Source: Escherichia coli
GTDB lineage: Bacteria; Pseudomonadota; Gammaproteobacteria; Enterobacterales; Enterobacteriaceae
Direction: 5' to 3' (one strand)
DNA: 27,210 nt
Assembly (NCBI GenBank): GCA_005388305.1
Contig: GCA_005388305.1_4327.1
In this document: positions 1 to 19,965 of the stretch, piece by piece
Numbering within the stretch: position 1 is the first letter of the stretch
How the letters are laid out: the number at the start of each line of letters is the position of its first letter
Notes under the pieces: model-generated
The model's database searches: none
Told to the model about the DNA's origin: nothing
What the model saw: only the letters and a program-made list of their open reading frames with translations
Program-made: the position numbers and the translations under genes

Positions 1-120
1 TGGTTAGCCATTGCGAGCGTGCTTCTCGTCAGGTACGGCTTGACAGGCTGGCGGACCTCAGAGACACGTACACGGAGATTGAATTTTGGCGATAATCCTG
101 CACTACACGCGAAACGCTGA
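1..120 (+). CDS. 3' end of an upstream gene cut by the window edge (partial CDS, product unknown, probably tail-module)
   Basis: Frame 1 is open from nt 1 to TGA at 118-120 (…WLAIASVLLVRYGLTGWRTSETRTRRLNFGDNPALHAKR*). Same strand as the downstream tail genes. No start codon visible because the 5' end lies outside the window. Confidence 0.3.
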   Translation, partial: WLAIASVLLVRYGLTGWRTSETRTRRLNFGDNPALHAKR

Positions 121-2641
121 TGGCGCTTTCGACCGTACAAAACACGTCGGGACGCCGATGGAGTTTGTCGTTAACCGTATCCCGGACGGCGTGCCGGTGC
201 GCGTCTACCTGGGCGAGATTGGCGATGATACTGATGTCACCGACGACTTCGACGCGCTTAAAGATGAGGACGCTGTGTACCACATTATTGAGGGTGCGGG
301 TAGCGGGGCGCTCGGTGCCGTTAGTAAGGTGTTCGGTTTTATCCTTAAGCCAATCGCTAAGTTGTTTGGTCTGAACATGTCCGCAAACGCCAACTATACG
401 GCGACTAACAACCAGACAACATCACCAAATAACAGCCTCACAGACCGCTCAAACAAGCCGCGTCCTTACGAGCGCTCTTATGACATCTGCGGGACTGTAC
501 AGACAATCCCTAACGACCTTATGCAGACGTATAAGGCGTTCAACTCCACGGGTGCTTTGCTGGAGTATTCGTATTATGACGCTGGGCGCGGGCATCTGCA
601 TATCGAGGCTGATGGCGTCACAGAGGTCGACACCCTGATAAGCGACATCACAGGTTCCTCTGTTGCCATATACGCGCCGTATACGTCACCGAACAATACC
701 ACATCTCCGCAACTACAAATCGGCGACATCATTGACCAGAAACTCTATGTGACATACTCCAACGACGACGTTGACGGTATTGTACTAAAAGCGCCAAACG
801 ACATTGGGGCCAACCCAAGCGCTGATGGTACCGCAAAACGTATTTCAAACACCGGCTACATCTATGACCCGTCAGGGGACTCTGCTTTTTCTGAGTTTCT
901 TAGCGTCGGTGATGCGGCAGTGCTGAGCAACTTTGACGTTGCTGATGTCACTAACCTGAACGGCTCGTTTGAGGTTTTATACGTTGACGACTTCGAAGTA
1001 AGATTAGCCGTAAACGGTGCGTCTAACTGGGCCGCGTTGACCAGCGGACAGACGTACACACTAACAGAGCGTTCAGATACGTTTATTGGCCCTAGCAACA
1101 CATATGACGTATCTCTTACGGACTGGTATTACATGGTTCGCGGAGAGGTCGACCGGGTGCTCGCGAACGTCGCAGGGCAGAATGGCCTCTACAAATACGG
1201 CGGCGGCTATAACCGCACCAGCGTAACGGTAGAACTCCAGTACCAGATGATTGACTCTCGGCGCAACCCATTGAGCGATATTTACACAGTACAGGCTACA
1301 ATTACCGGTAATAGCACGGATTACGTCGGTACGTCTATCTACGGGCAATTGCCTACTGCATCGCGTTTCCGCGCCCGTATGCGCCGTATAACGAATTTTG
1401 ATAAGGACTACAACGGTACAGTAAGCGACGAGATAACCTTCATCAACCTGTACGGGCAGTCGCTGGACACAACCCCACACTACGGCAACCGAACTACCGT
1501 GCATTGCGCACGTAAACAGACGCCGCGTGCCGCCAGTATCAACAACCCAGAACTGCGCATGATTGCTACCGAGATGTGCCACAAATACTTAGGTAATGGG
1601 GTATTCGATACAGTAATGACACCGAACACGCAAGCCGTACAATCTCTAATTCGACTGGCGCGCGACCCCGCAGTAGGCAATCTGGAACTGACAACGGCAA
1701 ACATGGACAAGTTACTTGCTGTGCAGGAAGAAATTGAGTCCTATTTCGGAAGTGAATTAGCAGGGCAATTCTGCTACACGTTCGACGACTACGACACGAC
1801 GATGCAGGACATTGTTCAGGCCATAGCTGAAGCCGTGTTCTGTACTGCGTACCGTAAAGGCGCGGACATTATGCTGCGTTTCGACCGTCCGGTTGCAGGG
1901 CCTGAAATGGTGTTCACCCACCGTAGTAAGACGACCGGTACGGAGAAATGGACACGCACGTTCAACGATTCGACAACCTACGATAGCCTGTCGTTCTCAT
2001 ACATCGACCCGGATACTAACGTACAGGAAACGATTTACATCCCGGAAGAACTGGGTGCAAATACGGAGGAATACGAATCAAAGGGCGTGCGTAACTACCA
2101 ACAGGCATATTGGCTGGCGTGGCGTCGCTATCAGCGCAATGCGTTAAGTAAAGTTGTTGTAGAGTTCGAAGCTACGGAAGAAGGTGCGCTCGCTACGCCC
2201 GGTGGGGTAATCAGCGTAGTTAAAGGTTCACGTATCGCGCCACAGGACGGCTATGTTGTTGCCGTTAACGGGCTTACACTTACGCTATCCCAGCCTGTTA
2301 CGTTTACTCCTGGCGACGACCACTCCATCATTCTTAAGAAGCGCGATGGCTCAGTGCAGAGTATCTCTGTCATCAAAGGAAGACACGACCGCGAAGTGAT
2401 TATGCTATCGGCGCCGGAGGAAGCAATCTACACGGGGAATAGCGCGCTAAAAACTGAGTTTTCATTCGGCAACGAAGCAAGGCATAATGCACAGAAGATA
2501 GTTGTTTCTTCAATCGACCCGGGCGACGACCGCACGGTCAAGATTACGGGCTACAACTATGACGACGGATTCTATAAATACGACGGCGTCGCGCCTTTCG
2601 GTCGCGGTTTCTCCGACGGATTCAGCAACGGTTTTAATTAA
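86..2641 (+). CDS. phage tail protein, putative tail-tip / host-specificity (gpJ-like) protein, 851 aa
   Basis: Long ORF directly upstream of the tailspike on the same strand. ORF-track start is TTG at 86, preceded by GGAGA at 74-78; an in-frame ATG at 158 is an alternative start. Product is assigned from size and position in the tail module, not from a recognised catalytic motif. Confidence 0.5.
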   Translation: MAIILHYTRNADGAFDRTKHVGTPMEFVVNRIPDGVPVRVYLGEIGDDTDVTDDFDALKDEDAVYHIIEGAGSGALGAVSKVFGFILKPIAKLFGLNMSANANYTATNNQTTSPNNSLTDRSNKPRPYERSYDICGTVQTIPNDLMQTYKAFNSTGALLEYSYYDAGRGHLHIEADGVTEVDTLISDITGSSVAIYAPYTSPNNTTSPQLQIGDIIDQKLYVTYSNDDVDGIVLKAPNDIGANPSADGTAKRISNTGYIYDPSGDSAFSEFLSVGDAAVLSNFDVADVTNLNGSFEVLYVDDFEVRLAVNGASNWAALTSGQTYTLTERSDTFIGPSNTYDVSLTDWYYMVRGEVDRVLANVAGQNGLYKYGGGYNRTSVTVELQYQMIDSRRNPLSDIYTVQATITGNSTDYVGTSIYGQLPTASRFRARMRRITNFDKDYNGTVSDEITFINLYGQSLDTTPHYGNRTTVHCARKQTPRAASINNPELRMIATEMCHKYLGNGVFDTVMTPNTQAVQSLIRLARDPAVGNLELTTANMDKLLAVQEEIESYFGSELAGQFCYTFDDYDTTMQDIVQAIAEAVFCTAYRKGADIMLRFDRPVAGPEMVFTHRSKTTGTEKWTRTFNDSTTYDSLSFSYIDPDTNVQETIYIPEELGANTEEYESKGVRNYQQAYWLAWRRYQRNALSKVVVEFEATEEGALATPGGVISVVKGSRIAPQDGYVVAVNGLTLTLSQPVTFTPGDDHSIILKKRDGSVQSISVIKGRHDREVIMLSAPEEAIYTGNSALKTEFSFGNEARHNAQKIVVSSIDPGDDRTVKITGYNYDDGFYKYDGVAPFGRGFSDGFSNGFN

Positions 2642-2653
2642 AGAGGACTCTAT

Positions 2654-5608
2654 ATGTCAAGCGGATGCGGTGACGTTTTAAGCCTGGCGGATTTACAAAC
2701 CGCCAAGAAACATCAGATTTTCGAGGCCGAGGTTATCACTGGCAAATCCGGCGGTGTCGCCGGTGGTGCCGATATTGATTACGCGACAAATCGGGTTACT
2801 GGACAGACCCAGAAGACGTTACCTGCCGTGTTGCGTGATGCTGGTTTTAAACTGGCAGATTTTGATTTCACGTCAGGCGGTACACTATCCGCTAACGACC
2901 GAAACACCGCAGTTTTGTGGCCGTCGTCCTCTGGCGGTGACGGGGATTGGTACTATTGGTTGGGTGCTCTGCCAAAAATTATCCCGGCGTCATCTTCTCC
3001 GCAGTCCACCGGTGGCGTGGCAGATGGGGCATGGCAGCCCGTCGGGTCGGTCATACTGCGGCAGCAAATATCTGATGTAAACGGTGCAATTCTGTACCCA
3101 GATTTACATATGGCGCGATGGAAGGACGAATACGACCCACGTGCATGGGGCGCCGTGGGCGACGGTGTAACTGATGATACTCAATCTATTTTTAATGTAT
3201 TAGCGGCTTCTCCCAACAATTGGATTATAGACGGCAGGGGTTTGACTTATAAAGTTTCCCAATTACCTGACATTAGTAAATTTAAGAATGCTGCATTCGT
3301 TTACGAGCGCGTAGCCGGGCAACCGCTTACTTATGTAGCTGATGGCTTCTTTAACAGCTCACTAACTAAGGTGACGGACACCCCGTTCTACAACGCATGG
3401 ACGCAGGATAAAACTTTCGTCTACGACCATGTTATTTACGCCCCGTTTATGGCGGGCGAACGACATGGCGTTCAAAACTTACATGTAGCTTGGGTTCGCT
3501 CTGGTGACGACGGTCAGACTTGGTCAATGCCTGAGTGGTTGACTCCAATCCATGCTGACTATAATGCTAGTGTTTCTACGGACAGAGTTAACTACCACTG
3601 CATGAGCATGGGTACATGCGGCAACCGATTATATGCAGTTATAGAAACCCGCTACTTATCTGATATGCGGATGAAGAAGGCAGAACTTTGGTCACGCCCA
3701 ATGCCGTATTTTAGACACCCAACCGGCGGAATAACTATTAGTTCTGGCTCCACTACTGCTACCATTGTTATAGAAAATCATGGCCTAAAAGCAGGAGATG
3801 CGGTTAACTTCTCTAATACATCGGCAACTGGCGTATCGGGTAATATGACGGTTGCGTCTATAATTAACCGAAATACGTTCACTGTTACGCTCTCAAGCCC
3901 TGCGAGTTCCACCATAAACAATGCGGGGGTTACCTGGAACTTCGCAACGCGATTCTGGGACAGCCCATGGGAAATTACCGAATTGCCGGGGGTGGCATAC
4001 TCCACTAACGCTGATTTGTGTGTCACGGAGACACATAGTTTTGCGGTTATAGATGATGCTAACTACACTATCGCTGTCGGCTATCACAACGGCGATGTGT
4101 CCCCTCGGCGTCTCGGCGTCTTGTATTTTAGTAACGTGTATGACAATCCAGGCGTATTCGTTCGTCGCACTGTCGCTCAGGCATACGCTGATAACGCTTC
4201 TGAGCCGTGCGTGAAAAGTTATGGAGGTGCGCTCTACCTTACCACACGCGGCACATTACCTACTTCCCCTGGCTCTACACTGGCGATGAGCACCGATTCA
4301 GGGCAAAACTGGAGCTACTTGCGATTTCCGAACAATGTACATCACTCCAATCTTCCGTTCGCTAAAGTAGGTGACTATCTCTACATCTTTGGTACAGAAC
4401 GTGCCTTTGGCGAGTGGGAAGGAGGCGAGCCGGACAGCAGCTATGAAGGTTCGTATCCACGGACCTTTATGTGCAAAGTTAATGTGTCGTCATGGCCTTC
4501 ATCTTTAGATGATGTTCAGTGGTTTAATATTACCGACCAAATATACCAGGGCCATATTGTTAACTCTGCTGTCGGCGTCGGCTCTGTCTGTGTTAAAGAT
4601 GGCTGGTTGTACTATATCTTTGGTGGGGAAGACTTCTTCTCTCCCTGGAGCATAGGGGATAACAGTGCGAAGTTATGGTACAAACATGATGGGCATCCGG
4701 CTGACTTATATAGCTACCGGATAAAGATTGAAGACCACCCGTACGTATCACGTGATTTCAAATACGGAGCAACTCCTAACCGTACACTACCTGTCGCAAT
4801 GGGTGTAGATGGTGTCCGTCATGTAGAAGCACCTTTGACGTTTGACAATGATATAAGCGTGTACTCCCTGCGTGTAACGGGGTTGGAATACGATGGCACA
4901 CAACAGTCTGCCGTGCGTGCACGGTTTGATGGTGATTACGGGCTGATTTCAAAAACAGTCCCCACTAAAACCCCATCGGTTCAAAGACTTATTGTTAGCG
5001 GCGGTGACGGCGCATCCCGCTCCGATGGTGCGTTGCTGCAACTGTACGGGGCAAACCATGCAACGCCTAACAGGGCTATTATGTATGCGTCAGGAGGCTT
5101 CTACTCATACAACAATTTCCTTCCTTACTTAGACTCGCGAGTGTCTTTAGGTTCGGCAAGTAATAGGTGGACTACGGTGTACGCGGTCACCGGTACGATA
5201 AACACGTCTGATGGTACACTTAAGACGAACAAAGAGGAAATTGAGGGACAACTCCTTACCGCATGGGAGGATATACATGTAATATCTTTTAAGTGGCTTG
5301 AAAGCCTAGCAATCAAGGGTGACACTGCAAGGATACACTTCGGTGTGATAGCCCAAGATGTGCGAGACATCTTGGTCAACCATGGGCTTATGGAGAAAGA
5401 TTCTACCGATTGTAAATATGCTTTCTTGTGCTACGACTCAATTGAAGCTGCGTATGATATTGATGAAGATGGCCAGACTGTACAAGTATCCCCTCCCGGC
5501 GGCAGATGGGGGGTTAGGGCGGACCAGATGTTCTTCATAGAGATTGCCTATCAGCGTAAGAAGATGCGCGAGTTCGAGAAGAGGCTGGCAGCACTAGAAG
5601 ATAAATAA
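2654..5608 (+). CDS. tailspike: sialidase-like (putative endosialidase, capsule depolymerase) with C-terminal intramolecular chaperone (peptidase S74-type) domain, 984 aa
   Basis: RBS AAGAGGA 7 nt before ATG 2654. Two Asp-box motifs (SxDxGxTW): SGDDGQTW at nt ~3500-3523 and STDSGQNW at nt 4289-4312. C-terminal ~130 aa (…SDGTLKTNKEEIEG…GVIAQDVRDIL…FIEIAYQRKKMREFEKRLAALEDK) has the Ser-x4-Lys dyad and layout of autoproteolytic chaperone domains of endosialidases and T5-type tail fibres. The N-proximal segment GGDGDWYYWLGALPKIIPASSSPQSTGG resembles the corresponding endoNF region as recalled from memory. Confidence 0.75.
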   Translation: MSSGCGDVLSLADLQTAKKHQIFEAEVITGKSGGVAGGADIDYATNRVTGQTQKTLPAVLRDAGFKLADFDFTSGGTLSANDRNTAVLWPSSSGGDGDWYYWLGALPKIIPASSSPQSTGGVADGAWQPVGSVILRQQISDVNGAILYPDLHMARWKDEYDPRAWGAVGDGVTDDTQSIFNVLAASPNNWIIDGRGLTYKVSQLPDISKFKNAAFVYERVAGQPLTYVADGFFNSSLTKVTDTPFYNAWTQDKTFVYDHVIYAPFMAGERHGVQNLHVAWVRSGDDGQTWSMPEWLTPIHADYNASVSTDRVNYHCMSMGTCGNRLYAVIETRYLSDMRMKKAELWSRPMPYFRHPTGGITISSGSTTATIVIENHGLKAGDAVNFSNTSATGVSGNMTVASIINRNTFTVTLSSPASSTINNAGVTWNFATRFWDSPWEITELPGVAYSTNADLCVTETHSFAVIDDANYTIAVGYHNGDVSPRRLGVLYFSNVYDNPGVFVRRTVAQAYADNASEPCVKSYGGALYLTTRGTLPTSPGSTLAMSTDSGQNWSYLRFPNNVHHSNLPFAKVGDYLYIFGTERAFGEWEGGEPDSSYEGSYPRTFMCKVNVSSWPSSLDDVQWFNITDQIYQGHIVNSAVGVGSVCVKDGWLYYIFGGEDFFSPWSIGDNSAKLWYKHDGHPADLYSYRIKIEDHPYVSRDFKYGATPNRTLPVAMGVDGVRHVEAPLTFDNDISVYSLRVTGLEYDGTQQSAVRARFDGDYGLISKTVPTKTPSVQRLIVSGGDGASRSDGALLQLYGANHATPNRAIMYASGGFYSYNNFLPYLDSRVSLGSASNRWTTVYAVTGTINTSDGTLKTNKEEIEGQLLTAWEDIHVISFKWLESLAIKGDTARIHFGVIAQDVRDILVNHGLMEKDSTDCKYAFLCYDSIEAAYDIDEDGQTVQVSPPGGRWGVRADQMFFIEIAYQRKKMREFEKRLAALEDK

Positions 5609-5612
5609 AACT

Positions 5613-5634
5613 AAGGCCCCAAACGGGGCCTTTT
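5613..5634. terminator. bidirectional rho-independent terminator between convergent tailspike and helicase transcription units
   Basis: Hairpin AAGGCCCC-AAAC-GGGGCCTT followed by TTTT on the + strand and preceded by an A-rich tract (T-run on the - strand); lies just after the tailspike stop. Confidence 0.6.
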
Positions 5635-5637
5635 CTC

Positions 5638-5774
5638 TACTCTTCGGATAACTTTTCCAGTACAAACGCCAGTTGCGCATTAGCGGCGTCTCTTTGCTGC
5701 CGTAGTCGCAGAACCTCTTCTTCTAGTTCCTTGATACGTTTTTGCAATGCGGGAATCGGGGCTATGATGTTCAT
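5638..5774 (-). CDS. small coiled-coil protein, 45 aa (below ORF-track cutoff)
   Basis: ATG at 5774-5772 overlaps the helicase TGA stop in an ATGA arrangement, with GAGGT RBS-like sequence upstream. Translation MNIIAPIPALQKRIKELEEEVLRLRQQRDAANAQLAFVLEKLSEE. Ends just before the terminator. Confidence 0.3.
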
Positions 5775-7195
5775 TTCTTACCTCTTCTCTTCATATAATT
5801 AAGCAACTCTTCCTGTACCGATTTCTTCTCGTCCGTACGCGCGGCAACAACCTCGTCAAGAGTGTCTTTAGCGACTATGTGATAAAGGAACACCGGGCGC
5901 TCGTGGCCTGCCTGCTTCTGGCGTACTGGACCTATACGCTCGACGACCTGCAAATAGTGCTCAAGGTTCCAGCCTTGTGAAATGAATGCCAGATGATGCC
6001 CGCCGTCCTGTAAATTCAAACCATGCCCGGCTGACGCGGGATGCACGCACAAAATCTCGATTTCGCCTCGGTTCCACGCCTCCATCTGCTTATTACCCTT
6101 CGCGCCTTTAGAAAATGCCTGCGCCTGTGGGAACCGCTTAAGGATACGCTCAAGTTCGTGCTTAAACTGATAGGCCACAAGTAACGGTGCGCCCTGTAAC
6201 TCCTCGACAATGGACTCGAGCGCATCCAGTTTCGTATCGTGCACTTTCTCCCAGTCTTTCGTTGCCTCACCGTCCGGCCCTGACACATATACGGCGCCGG
6301 ATGCAATCTGCAAACACTTTGACGTCTTCGCTGCGGCGTTAGCCGCTTCTACTTCCCCGCTCTCCAGTTCCGCGAATAACTTCTCCTCCATATCGATGTA
6401 CGCCTGGCGTGCTTTCTTCGGCAGGTCTATTTCAACTGGTACGATAATCGGCGCTTCGCAACCGAACCACTCGGCAGCGTCAATCGTGAGACTAATGTCC
6501 TTCATCTTCTGATGAATCTCGGTATCCGCACCCGGGCGGGCGTGATACTCACGCGCCATCGCCGATTTGCCTTTCTGTACAGAGTTGAACCAGCGGTCGG
6601 TGAACGCAGTGTACGATGAGCCGAGGCGCTCGCCAGCGTCGATAAACCAGTTCTGGCCCCACAGGTCTTTGAGGCCGTTAGGCGACGGTGTGCCCGTCAG
6701 ATTGATGAAACGCTTAACTTTACCGAACGCCACTTTGCTGAGCGCCTTTGCCCGCTTGCTACCACCAGAACGGCTACGGAATGACTTCAGTTTCGTACTC
6801 TCATCTGCAACGATAACCGTAAAAGGCCAGTCGTCTTTGCCGTAGTAGTCAATCAGCCACTCGATAACTTCGTAGTTGGTACACACCACGTTAACATCTG
6901 ACTCCAGCGCCGCGATGCGGCGCTTTTCTGAACCAGTTGCATCGACGACGCTCAGACATGGGAATTGCCATTTCTCTTGTTCTGCGGGCCACGTACCCGA
7001 CGCAACGCGCAGCGGGGCGAGGATTAACACGCGGTCGTCATCATTAAGTTGACCGTTGCGGAACAGTCTGTTTAACGCCCACAGTACGCTGCCAGTCTTC
7101 CCGGCGCCCATGCTCGCCCATATGTTGCAGCGATGGTGCTGCAACATGAACGAAGTCATGAGCTTCTGGTATTCGCGCCTTTGAAACTTACTCAT
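5771..7195 (-). CDS. SNF2-family (superfamily 2) DNA helicase, 474 aa
   Basis: Walker A ASMGAGKTG, motif II VIVADEST, motif III LTGTP, C-terminal motif VI-like QVVERIGPVRQKQAG. Start overlaps the methyltransferase stop by 8 nt. Confidence 0.8.
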   Translation of the reverse strand: MSKFQRREYQKLMTSFMLQHHRCNIWASMGAGKTGSVLWALNRLFRNGQLNDDDRVLILAPLRVASGTWPAEQEKWQFPCLSVVDATGSEKRRIAALESDVNVVCTNYEVIEWLIDYYGKDDWPFTVIVADESTKLKSFRSRSGGSKRAKALSKVAFGKVKRFINLTGTPSPNGLKDLWGQNWFIDAGERLGSSYTAFTDRWFNSVQKGKSAMAREYHARPGADTEIHQKMKDISLTIDAAEWFGCEAPIIVPVEIDLPKKARQAYIDMEEKLFAELESGEVEAANAAAKTSKCLQIASGAVYVSGPDGEATKDWEKVHDTKLDALESIVEELQGAPLLVAYQFKHELERILKRFPQAQAFSKGAKGNKQMEAWNRGEIEILCVHPASAGHGLNLQDGGHHLAFISQGWNLEHYLQVVERIGPVRQKQAGHERPVFLYHIVAKDTLDEVVAARTDEKKSVQEELLNYMKRRGKK

Positions 7196-8111
7196 TTACG
7201 GCCCCCATAAACGCCTTTATAAATTCGGCGGCTACTTGCGGGACGATGGCATTGCCGTAACCGCGCAATCGTCCCACTCTTGCGGGTATCCCATTAGCCA
7301 GCGGGAATGTGCCGGGTTCAACTGGCCTGAATTTTCCATCCCGGCATCCGAGCCAGTCAGCATCTGACCAGTAGCCGTGATGCGGATTGGTTGATTCACC
7401 AAATATTGTGCGTGCGTCGCCAGATTGCAATTCGCATTCGGCCTGTTGAATCTCTTTTCCGCATATGCTTGCGGGTCTTTCGCTCGGCTGTTGTTGTCGT
7501 CTGCAACTGATGGCGCTGGCCATGCAGCTAAATGGCGGGCTTGTCCGGCAAGCGTCTGCAAACCGCGTTTCGTATCTGGTTGCGGATTGGTGTTCGCGGT
7601 CGGCGTGTACCATTCTTTTTGCACCAAAAAAGAGTCGCTCTCTTTTGTGCGGTGCGCCGACGCTACAAGCTGGGAGTACGGCAAACCCGACGGCGTAGTC
7701 TTCTCCTTCCAGGTGAGTTTGTAAATCGCACATCCACGATTTTGCAATTGCTGGCGCAACCTGCTCCCCAAAGAGGACTGGAGGTCGGCACTCGCTGATA
7801 AGGTCGAGGAACACAGGTGCGAGGTGTCTCGGGTCGAACTGTCCGAGTTGCTTTCCCGCCGCGCTAAACGGTTGGCAAGGCGGGCTTCCCGTCCAGAGAG
7901 GCGTATCCTCCGAAACTCCCGCAAGTCTGAGCGCGAGAGGCCAGCCGCCGATACCAGCGAAAAAATGACACTGGGTGAACCCGTCAAGGTCTTCTGGCTT
8001 AACTTCGGTAATGCTTCTTTCATCTACAACTCCAAAAGGTATGTGACCATGTTTTATTAATTCACGCAGCCACGCGGCTGCGCCTTTATCCCATTCGTTG
8101 TAATAGTTCAT
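7188..8111 (-). CDS. DNA (cytosine-5)-methyltransferase, 307 aa
   Basis: Motif I HFFAGIGG (FxGxGG), motif IV GSPPCQPFSAAGK (catalytic PCQ), motif VIII-like PHKRERLFF, motif X-like LRGYGNAIVPQVA. Confidence 0.8.
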   Translation of the reverse strand: MNYYNEWDKGAAAWLRELIKHGHIPFGVVDERSITEVKPEDLDGFTQCHFFAGIGGWPLALRLAGVSEDTPLWTGSPPCQPFSAAGKQLGQFDPRHLAPVFLDLISECRPPVLFGEQVAPAIAKSWMCDLQTHLEGEDYAVGFAVLPACSVGAPHKRERLFFGAKRMVHADREHQSATRYETRFADACRTSPPFSCMASAISCRRQQQPSERPASICGKEIQQAECELQSGDARTIFGESTNPHHGYWSDADWLGCRDGKFRPVEPGTFPLANGIPARVGRLRGYGNAIVPQVAAEFIKAFMGAVNE

Positions 8112-8617: not shown

Positions 8618-8698
8618 CTATACACCCCTCCCGTTTCGTATGCGCGATACCGCAGCGAGGGCAGATTCGACAGTCTTCTTCATATAACCAGTAAATTT

Positions 8699-8830
8699 TC
8701 ATTCCAGCACCCACAGATAAATTGCGATGAATATACCCAATACGGCAACCATCATGCCGTATTGGCCTTCGCGACAGTAGACACCGGCAGCAAATCCCGT
8801 CAGTACCGCGATAATCAGTTTACTTAGCAT
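8699..8830 (-). CDS. putative small hydrophobic membrane peptide, 43 aa (below ORF-track cutoff)
   Basis: ATG at 8830 overlaps the 3' end of the polymerase gene by 11 nt. Translation MLSKLIIAVLTGFAAGVYCREGQYGMMVAVLGIFIAIYLWVLE has two hydrophobic stretches. No independent support. Confidence 0.2.
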   Translation of the reverse strand: MLSKLIIAVLTGFAAGVYCREGQYGMMVAVLGIFIAIYLWVLE

Positions 8831-11099
8831 AACGGTGCACCTCTTCCCCGGCCCATGTTAGCGGGAATCCTTCAGCCCATTCAGGTAATGAGCATAACAG
8901 GTCACCCATCTCTTTAACCGTGTACTCCGGCGTGTCTGGCGTTTCGGCGACACATTCATCGTGTACGTGGAGTACAATTGGGTAGCCCGCTGCCTCGACC
9001 GTCAGGAGTCCGTTAACCAGTAAATCACGGCACAACGCCTGGATGATGTTTTCACACAATTTTCCGCCGTGTGTGTACAAAGTTGTCCACTGGCGGGTGG
9101 TCTGATTTTCGCCCTGGTATTTAATGCGAACGTTAGTTGTTACGCGCCCGTCCTCGTCAGTCTCTTTAGTGACGCTTAAACCTATACCAGGGTAGGACAT
9201 AATGCGCCCGGACGGCAACTCCACGCACAACCACCAACCCGGCACAAAGTTACCCTGTCTGTCTTTCTCTTTAGTACGCCATATGCGAATAGCTCTGTCG
9301 CCGTTAAGGCGGACTCTGGCCCCCGCCCAAAACTCTCGTCCCGGATTTCTGATTGCGGCAATTACCGAATCCTTAAGGTCGTTCCAGAATTTCACTGTTT
9401 CCGGATGGGCCTCCCGCCACATGCGCTTGATAGCATCGCAGGTGCGCCAGACTTCCTTTGGCAGCACATAGGAGGCCCGTTCGTCTTTTTTACCGGGTTT
9501 TGGGGGTCGCTTAGCCTCCTGAATCCGCGCCCATTCATAACCTCTGGCAGTAGCCGCCCATATATGATCAGGGAATGTCCCCCGCATTGTCTCCGTCATT
9601 TTAAANNNNNNNNNNNNNNNNNNNNNNNNNNNNNNNNNNNNNNNNNNNNNNNNNNNGCCGCCCTCATAGCCGAGGCCAAGCTCGCAACATTTCCCGACCT
9701 GTCGTAGGTCTTTACGGGTGGCTTTCAGTTCTATGGGGTCCATACCAAACATCTTACCAGCTGTGGCGCAATAAATATCAATCCCCGCGCGGAACGTATC
9801 AAGGGCGGACGTCTCCCCCGCCGTCCAGGCTAACCCACGCCCTTCCACGTTCGAGTAGTCGGCAACGAGCAACTTATTGCCTTTTTCCGGGATAATGCAA
9901 CTGCGGACAGTTGAGGCTGTTAGTTTAGATACGTCGAAACGGCGATGCGCCCGACCTTTTAACAGCAAATTGATGCCGAACGATAAGGGGTTAAGCCTGC
10001 GGTTCCAGTCTTCGTCGGACTCCCACGGCTGGCGTACAAGTTTCTTTTCCTCGTTAGTCGGGTCGTCATGGTAGTACCCGCGCGACAGGTTCTGCGGTTG
10101 GAACCCTTTACCCGCAAATCGTAAAGTGCGCTTTGCCCCACCGTACTGGATGCAACCGCGACGGCGTCCGTCTTTGGACCGTCCTAGCAGTAGCGGTTTG
10201 TATTTTGTTGACGCCGTGGAGGCCGCGCCGAGGCGCATCTCAATGATTGTGCGTGCATCGTCCGGTAAGTCGTCGTCCTCTAGCAAGCCTTCGAGCGTTG
10301 CTTTCTGCGCATTATAAATATTGTAGGCCGGTGCCAGTTCCCGGAGGATTGGCAGAAAATCTTTGCCAGTTAGTTTCCCTCCGAATTTCGCGCGGGCCTC
10401 GTTTTTTAGCTCTTGCTTGTGGCGTTCCACTGCCGCTACCGCCGCCTCAGCAAGAGCCGTGTCAACAAAGAAGCCTCGGTCGTTAATTAACTGGTCCAGT
10501 TCCAGTACACGGTCTTCGAACTCGGAGTTACCCCAACGCGGCAACTTATGGAACACTTCACGCATCGCGGTGATGTCGCTAACGGCGTACTTGATGAACA
10601 GCGCCCACTCATCCGGGTGCGTTTCAGCAGTGTAGCGGCGAATTTTGTAGTTCTTCGGCGTCGGTTTAGAGAAACGCTGAATAAGCGCTTTGCCTCGTTT
10701 GTCTTTCGCGTTGTCTGCAGACACGCCAAGCACTTCGCACAATGCGTCGAGTGAACCCGGCAGCGCGTGACGAAACGCCCAAATCATCGTATCAATGGTG
10801 TTGCTTACCGGAATATCAAAGCCCCAGCAGTGTTTCATGATGAGCCTGTCGAACATTGAGCCGTTGTGCCACACCATCTTGATGCGACTGTTTGGCTTAA
10901 CCAGGCGGCGCAGTGCGCGGTGCAAATCTCCCGGCATGTCGCTGCCGTCGGTGCAATCCCATACCTGTACAGGCTCGTCGTCAAAAGCGTATGTGCAGAT
11001 AAGCACTTCGGTAGTTGGATGTTCGGCGTAAGCGTAGGAGCCGACTTTCTTCAAATCGGCTTCGGAGAATGTTTCAAAGTCTAAGAACAGGTAACTCAT
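8820..11099 (-). CDS. family A DNA polymerase with 3'-5' exonuclease domain, 759 aa (interrupted by an assembly gap)
   Basis: Exo I LFLDFETFS, Exo II WHNGSMFDRL, Exo III YAVSDITAM, pol motif A LLVADYSNVEGRGLAW, motif B RKDLRQVGKCCELGLGYEGG, motif C VLHVHDECV. A run of 17 X residues in the translation corresponds to the N run. Confidence 0.9.
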   Translation of the reverse strand: MSYLFLDFETFSEADLKKVGSYAYAEHPTTEVLICTYAFDDEPVQVWDCTDGSDMPGDLHRALRRLVKPNSRIKMVWHNGSMFDRLIMKHCWGFDIPVSNTIDTMIWAFRHALPGSLDALCEVLGVSADNAKDKRGKALIQRFSKPTPKNYKIRRYTAETHPDEWALFIKYAVSDITAMREVFHKLPRWGNSEFEDRVLELDQLINDRGFFVDTALAEAAVAAVERHKQELKNEARAKFGGKLTGKDFLPILRELAPAYNIYNAQKATLEGLLEDDDLPDDARTIIEMRLGAASTASTKYKPLLLGRSKDGRRRGCIQYGGAKRTLRFAGKGFQPQNLSRGYYHDDPTNEEKKLVRQPWESDEDWNRRLNPLSFGINLLLKGRAHRRFDVSKLTASTVRSCIIPEKGNKLLVADYSNVEGRGLAWTAGETSALDTFRAGIDIYCATAGKMFGMDPIELKATRKDLRQVGKCCELGLGYEGGXXXXXXXXXXXXXXXXXFKMTETMRGTFPDHIWAATARGYEWARIQEAKRPPKPGKKDERASYVLPKEVWRTCDAIKRMWREAHPETVKFWNDLKDSVIAAIRNPGREFWAGARVRLNGDRAIRIWRTKEKDRQGNFVPGWWLCVELPSGRIMSYPGIGLSVTKETDEDGRVTTNVRIKYQGENQTTRQWTTLYTHGGKLCENIIQALCRDLLVNGLLTVEAAGYPIVLHVHDECVAETPDTPEYTVKEMGDLLCSLPEWAEGFPLTWAGEEVHRYAK
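9606..9656. other. assembly gap (51 consecutive N) inside the DNA polymerase gene
   Basis: Directly visible run of n characters; its length is a multiple of 3 so the frame is formally preserved, but the true length and sequence are unknown. Confidence 0.95.
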
Positions 11100-19367: not shown

Positions 19368-19496
19368 ATGAAAGATTATAGCGAAGTAACTTTAGGTGAG
19401 TTGCAGGACGAGTACGAAGATATGCGCTACCCGTTCATCTGCGACGGGGACTACAACGGCGTCTATAACGGGGTGAGCGAAGAATATGAACACTAA
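19368..19496 (+). CDS. hypothetical acidic protein, 42 aa (below ORF-track cutoff)
   Basis: ATG 19368 with strong RBS directly after the promoter; overlaps the next gene by 11 nt. Confidence 0.4.
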   Translation: MKDYSEVTLGELQDEYEDMRYPFICDGDYNGVYNGVSEEYEH

Positions 19497-19965
19497 AAAC
19501 GAAATATTCGAGTACCTGATCGACCAGCTACGGCAGCAGGTAAATAACAGCCGGAGCGAAGACCTGGCGCATGAGGTGCAGTCACTTAAGAATCAGTTAC
19601 GTGATGCGTCGGCGCAGATTAAGGAGTTGCATAAGGCGTTGGCTACGGCTACAGGTGACATAGGTGCTTATATAGCAGCAGAGCAATCTGGTTGCCGTAA
19701 GGAAGATACTCAGTACAACGCCTGGAGGCCGCATTATGGTGCACGACAACCTGTGCCGGATGGGACTATGGTATTTATCCGGTATCGCAACGGGGTGGAG
19801 CCGAAACACAGTGTAGCAGCAGAAAAGCGGTCGTGGATTTGGGATGGAACATACGCAGACATAGTGGAATACAAGATTGACACACAGGAATGTGAACATG
19901 ACTATCGTTTGGTTCTGTGGTGTAGCGACTTACAGCAGTGCTCTAAATGCGGGGTGATCAAATGA
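19486..19965 (+). CDS. hypothetical protein with N-terminal coiled coil and C-terminal Cys/His cluster, 159 aa
   Basis: Largest gene of the early block; C-terminus CEHDYRLVLWCSDLQQCSKCG suggests a zinc-binding module. Confidence 0.6.
   Translation: MNTKNEIFEYLIDQLRQQVNNSRSEDLAHEVQSLKNQLRDASAQIKELHKALATATGDIGAYIAAEQSGCRKEDTQYNAWRPHYGARQPVPDGTMVFIRYRNGVEPKHSVAAEKRSWIWDGTYADIVEYKIDTQECEHDYRLVLWCSDLQQCSKCGVIK

Follow-up and report, generated by a model that had tools for sequence, protein, structure and literature searches.

An endo-α-2,8-sialidase-type tailspike gene in a genome segment of a K1G-like Kagunavirus

The closest described relatives of the protein studied here are the tailspikes of Kagunavirus phages isolated on Escherichia coli K1. 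The 'tailspike 63D sialidase' of phages K1G and K1H was reportedly described by Bull et al. in 2010. It shares with the 63D enzyme (Machida et al. 2000) and with the protein studied here the same domain order, a Kagunavirus background and a gene position after that of the J-like tail protein. Endosialidase activity of the 63D enzyme was reported by Machida et al. (2000, as cited in PMC5380687). For phage JSSK01, an isolate separate from the phage analysed here, recombinant ORF40, which is not known to differ functionally from the protein studied here, removed the capsule of K1 E. coli and agglutinated K1 strains only, and immunogold labelling located ORF40 at the tail ends (PMC11641727).

The window, i.e., the whole stretch of 27,210 nucleotides that was analysed, is, judging by its sequence, a segment of a K1G-like siphovirus genome of the genus Kagunavirus. 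It is syntenic with K1G, to which about 93% identity was found over 87% of its first 25 kb, with small cassette differences. An ORF check and translation revealed positions 2654..5608 of the + strand to be a genuine open reading frame with an ATG start, encoding 984 aa plus stop. The gene is 96.8% identical at the DNA level to the endo-N-acetylneuraminidase gene of phage 63D (AB015437) and 96.3% identical, across the whole gene, to that of JSSK01 ORF40; annotated relatives in the phage collection reach about 97% DNA identity. Protein identity to ORF40 is 97.8% over the catalytic part. Across its full length, the window protein shares 97.6% of its residues with 63D BAA32990 and 98.2% with K1G ADA82273, both of which also have 984 aa and align without gaps; the 18–24 substitutions are scattered, none of them affecting a mapped catalytic or cleavage residue. 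We conclude that the gene almost certainly encodes the endo-α-2,8-sialidase (endo-N-acetylneuraminidase) tailspike of this phage, acting by the mechanism proposed below; the enzyme is one which we take to belong to glycoside hydrolase family 58 (GH58). The features of the locus are as follows.

2640..2647, + strand: ribosome-binding site AAAGAGGA, Shine-Dalgarno-like, with the ATG six bases further on (read directly)
2654..5608, + strand: endosialidase tailspike gene, 63D/K1G type (ORF, Pfam, PDB and phage sequence matches)
2654..3067, + strand: N-terminal module, aa 1–138, common to other Guernseyvirinae tailspikes, with a putative role in virion attachment (tblastn)
3068..3151, + strand: linker or neck, aa 139–166, which together with aa 88–138 matches the Tail_spike_N type domain of many tailspikes
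3152..3352, + strand: endosialidase N-terminal extension, aa 167–233 (Pfam PF12218, E 7.7e-38)
3353..4732, + strand: six-bladed β-propeller catalytic domain, aa 234–693 (Pfam PF12217, E 3e-222, entire profile 1–367/367)
3500..3523, + strand: Asp-box 1, SGDDGQTW, aa 283–290 (aligned to the endoNF Asp-box at aa 362)
3704..3952, + strand: β-barrel (lectin-like) domain inserted in the propeller, aa 351–433 (Pfam PF12195, E 1.8e-41)
4289..4312, + strand: Asp-box 2, STDSGQNW, aa 546–553 (aligned to endoNF SRDIGQTW at aa 610)
4733..5206, + strand: stalk or tailspike domain, aa 694–851, with Thr851 as last residue and including R838 (endoNF R897) (Pfam PF12219, E 2.5e-72)
5207..5605, + strand: intramolecular chaperone/autoprotease domain, aa 852–984, with the S852 and K857 dyad (Pfam PF13884, PDB matches, residue mapping)
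5613..5632, no strand assigned: GC-rich hairpin AAGGCCCC-AAAC-GGGGCCTT, five bases past the stop codon (consensus match only)

The original prediction had named two Asp-boxes of the kind found in sialidase β-propellers and had suggested a comparison with endoNF, the endosialidase of phage K1F; the motifs and a sialidase-type fold were both borne out. Besides the full-length propeller profile, PDB sequence matches were obtained to the phi92 endosialidase 4hiz (E = 0) and to endoNF 1v0e/3gvl (E about 1e-227); with 4hiz and 1v0e, the alignment ran unbroken through propeller, barrel and stalk. The composition of the protein would let 0.015 matches to S.D.G..W be expected, and two matches arose in only 2 of 20,000 shuffles. 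From these matches, the central domain can firmly be assigned to the sialidase-type six-bladed propellers of the phage endosialidase family. That it is instead a non-sialidase depolymerase, e.g., a pectate-lyase β-helix carrying coincidental Asp-boxes, found no support, even if in the K1-independent Kagunavirus phages K1ind1–3 a pectate-lyase-type spike follows a similar N-terminus (PMC11641727). Such a fold is vanishingly improbable and was ruled out on the propeller profile and the PDB endosialidase matches; furthermore, coincidence is at variance with the alignment of both Asp-boxes to those of endoNF.

By alignment, the propeller residues H271, R485, E517, R532 and R583 correspond to H350, R549, E581, R596 and R647 of endoNF, and all key endoNF residues, among them ten of the active site and its network, are kept (Q330, D331, H350, H527, S528, R549, E581, K585, R596, R647, N699). 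The importance of Glu581, Arg596, Arg647, His350 and Arg549 for endoNF is documented (PMC2955717, PMC12632334). Endosialidase variants rendered inactive by active-site point mutations can still bind their substrate (Jakobsson et al. 2007, cited in PMC5380687), so a catalytically dead tailspike that binds polysialic acid without cleaving it was considered. Such an inactive, lectin-only spike is very improbable and was rejected, as every mapped catalytic and supporting residue is intact and the reading frame is of full length without gaps versus active homologues; a pseudogene was likewise rejected. Hydrolysis of polysialic acid by the window variant would be expected by analogy with its assayed relatives.

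In the stalk, the residues R837, S848 and Q853 of endoNF reportedly bind polysialic acid (attributed to Stummeyer et al. in 2005). These are partly kept in the window protein, in which R837 is retained while S848 and Q853 are replaced by R789 and L794, respectively, according to the alignment. At these stalk positions, the proteins of 63D and K1G, which are active, likewise differ from endoNF.

A C-terminal chaperone domain of about 130 aa with an SDGTLK dyad had likewise been anticipated, and was recovered. Pfam PF13884 (Peptidase_S74) matched aa 852–912 with E 7.2e-13, SDGTLK being located at the exact start of the match, and PDB matches of the domain were 3gw6 (the endoNF chaperone; E 5.6e-55), 3gud (E 1.5e-10) and T5 pb1 4uw8 (E 3.3e-8). 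By itself, the S-x4-K pattern is weak evidence, because the protein contains three copies of it; the SDGTLK copy is the one aligned to endoNF Ser911/Lys916. S852, K857, R838 and G897 correspond to endoNF S911, K916, R897 and G956, and T910 is also kept as Thr851; N912 of endoNF is D853 in the window protein. At the latter position, the eukaryotic MYRF also has an Asp (D579) (PMC3742443). Autocleavage in this family involves a Ser-Lys dyad, an Arg of the neighbouring chain and an essential Gly (PMC3742443, PMC4690869). The scissile bond of the window protein is predicted to be T851|S852, in line with the Thr1263-Ser1264 bond of T5 pb1, and a cut ahead of SDGTLK, which begins at aa 852, would split the protein into a mature part of 93.0 kDa and a released piece of 15.2 kDa comprising the last 133 aa. 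Autoproteolytic release of the 15.2 kDa domain would be expected by analogy.

T5 pb1, the GA-1 neck appendage, K5 lyase and MYRF belong to the same Peptidase_S74/ICA family and share the Ser-x4-Lys dyad as well as the upstream Arg 14 residues ahead of the Ser, but their chaperone is joined to other cargo domains, and identity is only about 18–40%. The endoNF chaperone domain is longer, at 154 aa; its 'tentacle' loop is extended, and this region is 21 residues shorter in the window protein.

Among structurally characterised endosialidases, phi92 gp143 (4hiz) is similar to the window protein in its architecture of propeller, barrel and stalk, with 78.9% identity over aa 166–851. The 4hiz alignment stops exactly at aa 851; the phi92 structure ends at ...GTINT before the cleavage serine, at the same point as in the window protein. 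Phage phi92 is a myovirus, however, and its N-terminal attachment region is unlike that of the window protein. The endosialidases of K1F (endoNF), K1E, K1-5 and CUS-3 are about 50–58% identical in the catalytic part and have both Asp-boxes, the catalytic residues and the Ser/Lys dyad for autocleavage in common with the window protein, but these phages are podoviruses or P22-like, with adaptors of the T7 gp17-like, adapter-peptide and P22-like types.

The structures 4hiz (phi92) and 1v0e (K1F) are trimers, and homotrimeric assembly would be expected for the window protein by analogy. For 63D, Machida et al. (2000, via PMC5380687) reported a homotetrameric enzyme, which is at odds with the trimers crystallised for phi92 and K1F. 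The phi92 enzyme is described as bifunctional, acting on α-2,8- and α-2,9-linked polysialic acid (PMC13450770). Since the catalytic part of the window protein is much nearer to phi92-type enzymes (78.9% for 4hiz, about 79% for those of ESCO5-like myoviruses) than to K1F/K1E (about 50%), a family member of broadened or shifted linkage specificity is conceivable, cutting α-2,9 bonds of the alternating α-2,8/2,9 K92 polymer in addition to K1, or else differing in its tolerance of O-acetylated K1. This is nevertheless unlikely, as all close relatives whose host is on record came from K1 strains and agglutination by JSSK01 ORF40 was K1-specific. It is unlikely that the window enzyme is bifunctional (α-2,9 and α-2,8) or, alternatively, tetrameric as Machida et al. 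reported. If it were bifunctional, the host range of the phage would be widened to K92 E. coli, or the enzyme would be usable against α-2,9 polysialic acid capsules. We retain a K1-directed endo-α-2,8-sialidase as the preferred assignment.

The N-terminal 138 residues are 69–72% identical to the N-termini of tailspikes of Salmonella Jersey-like phages in tblastn, with the similarity ending at aa 138, and those tailspikes bear other catalytic domains. K1F gp17 matched aa 6–166 with 37.9% identity (tblastn), Pfam PF18668 matched aa 97–131, and PDB entry 9vvr aligned to aa 88–166 with E 1.2e-22, so that the likeness to other tailspikes ends between aa 138 and 166, which fits the boundary of the N-terminal adaptor of about 140 aa originally proposed. 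The GC content is 55.1% in the N-terminal module versus 48.1% in the catalytic part. Because the module recurs in tailspikes with other catalytic domains, the sharing supports the view that aa 1–138 form a separate module that would act as attachment adaptor. As is characteristic of Guernseyvirinae tailspikes, the N-terminal module is kept and the gene is the last of the tail module, directly after that of the J-like tail protein (ORF 86..2641; phrog_469, phrog_31).

Regarding expression, the 63D record AB015437 has an annotated ribosome-binding site at the position equivalent to AAAGAGGA. A promoter scan yielded sites no more numerous than in shuffled sequence, and no promoter was assigned to the tailspike gene for this reason; most likely, the gene is co-transcribed with the tail module. 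The hairpin past the stop codon is likely to terminate transcription in both directions, between the tail and replication modules, which are convergent. Scans of the window for tRNA genes and Rfam families gave no matches.

Taken as a whole, we propose that three chains would fold jointly, guided by the 133-aa chaperone domain. After formation of the triple β-helix stalk, Ser852 and Lys857, together with Arg838 of the neighbouring chain, would cut Thr851-Ser852, thereby freeing the chaperone of roughly 15 kDa and leaving a mature subunit of 93 kDa. The N-terminal ~138 residues would fix the trimer to the tail tip, beside the J-like tail protein, whose gene lies immediately before that of the tailspike. 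Propeller, inserted barrel and stalk would bind the capsular polysialic acid of E. coli K1, and Glu517, Arg532 and Arg583 would act alongside His271 and Arg485 in the hydrolysis of internal α-2,8 bonds. The phage would thus be able to tunnel across the capsule and reach the outer membrane. What has been established here is how the protein is built from its domains, that its key residues are conserved, that it is nearly identical to characterised enzymes, and in which genomic context its gene lies.

The host prediction of E. coli K1 agrees with the isolation host of the closest relatives, K1G, K1H, JSSK01 and the Smith-Huggins collection all having been isolated on E. coli K1, and the closest phages on O18:K1. 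The original prediction is right, yet the finding is an ordinary one, because the protein is about 98% identical to published enzymes; the gene is of an already described and assayed type, with activity known for near-identical proteins. It adds one further natural variant to a well-studied enzyme family already in use as a polysialic-acid reagent, and poses no new question. For the biology of the phage, the analysis confirms it as a K1-capsule-dependent Kagunavirus whose host receptor is readable from the tailspike gene, which is of use for host prediction and for selecting phages or enzymes to combat those E. coli K1 that are avian pathogens or cause neonatal meningitis or urinary-tract infection.

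The open reading frame at 2654..5608 was confirmed as originally predicted, with a length of 984 aa and with both Asp-boxes and the SDGTLK motif present. The gene and its flanking signals in the window are as follows:

86..2641, J-like tail protein gene, upstream of the tailspike gene
2640-2647, AAAGAGGA, upstream of the tailspike ATG, as read from the sequence
2654..5608, plus strand, tailspike ORF with ATG start, 984 aa
5613-5632, GC-rich hairpin, five bases 3' of the tailspike stop codon

Megablast revealed the gene to be 97.9% identical to the tailspike gene of phage UTI-CM001, 97.0% to that of K1G ('tailspike 63D sialidase') and 96.8% to the 63D endo-N-acetylneuraminidase gene (GenBank AB015437), with gap-free protein alignments giving 98.2% identity to K1G and 97.6% to 63D. 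PMC5380687, citing Machida et al. 2000, lists the 63D protein among characterised endo-N-acetylneuraminidases. Over the catalytic part, ORF40 of phage JSSK01 is 97.8% identical; recombinant ORF40 was assigned to the distal tail by immunogold labelling, stripped the capsule of K1 E. coli and agglutinated K1 strains only (PMC11641727). We conclude that the tailspike is an already known protein type from an already known phage genus, and that its interpretation as a polysialic acid (K1-type) capsule depolymerase is correct, the finding as such being ordinary.

A Pfam profile search divided the protein into six domains:

aa 97-131, Tail_spike_N-type segment (E 1e-13)
aa 167-233, endosialidase N-terminal extension (E 7.7e-38)
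aa 234-693, endosialidase beta-propeller, profile matched in full (E 3e-222)
aa 351-433, endosialidase beta-barrel, inserted in the propeller (E 1.8e-41)
aa 694-851, endosialidase stalk (E 2.5e-72)
aa 852-912, Peptidase_S74, 'chaperone of endosialidase' (E 7.2e-13)

Searching the PDB sequences retrieved two endosialidases, that of phi92 (4hiz; aa 166-851, E = 0, 78.9% identity in the alignment) and endoNF of K1F (1v0e/3gvl; E about 1e-227). It also retrieved a structure of the endoNF stalk with its chaperone (3gw6; E 5.6e-55), the chaperone of the GA-1 neck appendage (3gud; E 1.5e-10) and the L-shaped fibre of T5 (4uw8; E 3.3e-8). A non-sialidase fold of the central domain, which would have contradicted the original prediction, is ruled out by the Pfam endosialidase domains and the endosialidase matches in the PDB. 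Separately, the neck of a recently solved 843-aa 'Tail spike protein' (9vvr, chain A) was found to closely resemble aa 88-166 (E 1.2e-22); with the full-length query, this chain matched in two stretches (E 3.2e-51).

Both predicted Asp-boxes were located, SGDDGQTW at aa 283-290 and STDSGQNW at aa 546-553. From the composition of the protein, 0.015 matches to S.D.G..W are expected, and two matches were reached in only 2 of 20,000 shuffles. Alignment with full-length endoNF from the K1F genome placed H350, R549, E581, R596 and R647 of endoNF at H271, R485, E517, R532 and R583, all conserved, with the supporting-network residues Q330, D331, H527, S528, K585 and N699 also being kept. The five mapped endoNF positions comprise the active-site triad described in PMC2955717 and the catalytic residues that PMC12632334 describes as intolerant of mutation.

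The proposed C-terminal chaperone with a Ser/Lys dyad was likewise borne out, by the Peptidase_S74 match and by the alignment of S852/K857 with endoNF S911/K916. R838 is equivalent to the arginine 14 residues upstream of the serine (endoNF R897, T5 R1250), the essential glycine (endoNF G956) is G897, and Thr851 precedes the serine, as do T910 in endoNF and Thr1263 in T5 pb1. Since SDGTLK starts at aa 852, cleavage is predicted to release the last 133 aa (15.2 kDa), with a mature chain of 93.0 kDa remaining. Relative to endoNF, 21 residues are missing from the 'tentacle' loop of the chaperone domain.

The N-terminal module (aa 1-138) is 69-72% identical to tailspike N-termini of Salmonella Jersey-like phages, where similarity ends at that point; for KMB35, another E. 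coli spike of the Kagunavirus type, the match extends to aa 163, and residues 85-245 of K1F gp17 match aa 6-166 at 38%. The catalytic part was found in 139 records of the phage collection, with identities of 95-99% in K1G-like siphoviruses, about 79% in phi92/ESCO5-like myoviruses, 58% in CUS-3, about 50% in K1F, K1E and K1-5 types and 37% in Mannheimia haemolytica A2 phages. The chaperone domain is spread more widely than the other parts, including a lyase-annotated tailspike and Klebsiella spikes. GC content drops along the gene, from 55.1% (N-terminal module) through 48.1% (catalytic part) to 46.1% (chaperone domain), and the step falls where the modules join (aa 138-166). This drop would fit cassette exchange at about this junction. 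Together with the distinct distributions of the three parts, it lends support to the predicted N-terminal adaptor of ~140 aa, whose virion-attachment function is putative.

In the Mannheimia phages 587AP1 and 1127AP1 (serotype A2), the tail fibres match aa 60-569 of the catalytic-part query, approximately aa 225-734 of the protein. The A2 capsule of M. haemolytica is also polysialic acid; because of this, these fibres are probably endosialidases from phages of a host other than E. coli.

Over its first 25 kb, the window is 93.5% identical to K1G (Guernseyvirinae, Kagunavirus), with 87% of this stretch matched and the gene order the same. Helicase, C5-methylase, DNA polymerase, exonuclease and helicase-primase genes lie downstream of the tailspike gene on the opposite strand, followed by lysis genes and then terminase and portal genes. 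A 45-aa coiled-coil-like ORF, MNIIAPIPALQKRIKELEEEVLRLRQQRDAANAQLAFVLEKLSEE, was observed at 5637..5774 (minus strand), its ATG overlapping the helicase stop codon (ATGA, 5771-5774); its DNA is kept in K1G without annotation, and a Pfam search gave sub-threshold matches only (DUF1192, DUF4140). Between the helicase gene and this small ORF, K1G (5771-5965) carries an extra 182-nt cassette (ORF28, 61 aa), whereas the window (5770-5783) does not. A ~14-nt repeat of the stop/start coupling junction flanks the break, suggesting that a small gene was gained or lost through recombination at repeated junctions.

A candidate overlapping gene of 263 aa (7232..8023, minus strand) lies in another frame wholly inside the C5 cytosine methyltransferase gene (7188..8111, minus strand). 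Both are annotated in K1G, the embedded one as 'Mte8-like protein', and a Pfam search with it gave no match. A mosaic segment (8623-10062) spans part of the DNA polymerase gene (8820..11099, minus strand), with 8623-9243 being only 78% identical to K1G, 9244-10062 giving no blastn match to K1G and the flanks being 92-95% identical; the polymerase ORF has 759 aa, versus 726 aa in the K1G annotation. No match to K1G was found at DNA level for 19371-19959, where an ORF of 159 aa (19486..19965, plus strand) stands in place of K1G ORF42; a family search with its protein gave nothing above threshold.

As to oligomeric state, the crystallised homologues are trimers, whereas the 63D enzyme was reported as a tetramer (Machida et al. 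2000, as cited in PMC5380687). As to linkage specificity, gp143 of phi92, the nearest structural relative of the tailspike subfamily, was reported to be bifunctional, acting on alpha-2,8 and alpha-2,9 polysialic acid (PMC13450770). By analogy with the homologues, three chains would assemble under guidance of the C-terminal domain, upon which the T851-S852 bond would be cleaved and the chaperone would depart. The mature spike would then bind polysialic acid, with the propeller active site cutting internal alpha-2,8 bonds, which may let the virion reach the outer membrane.
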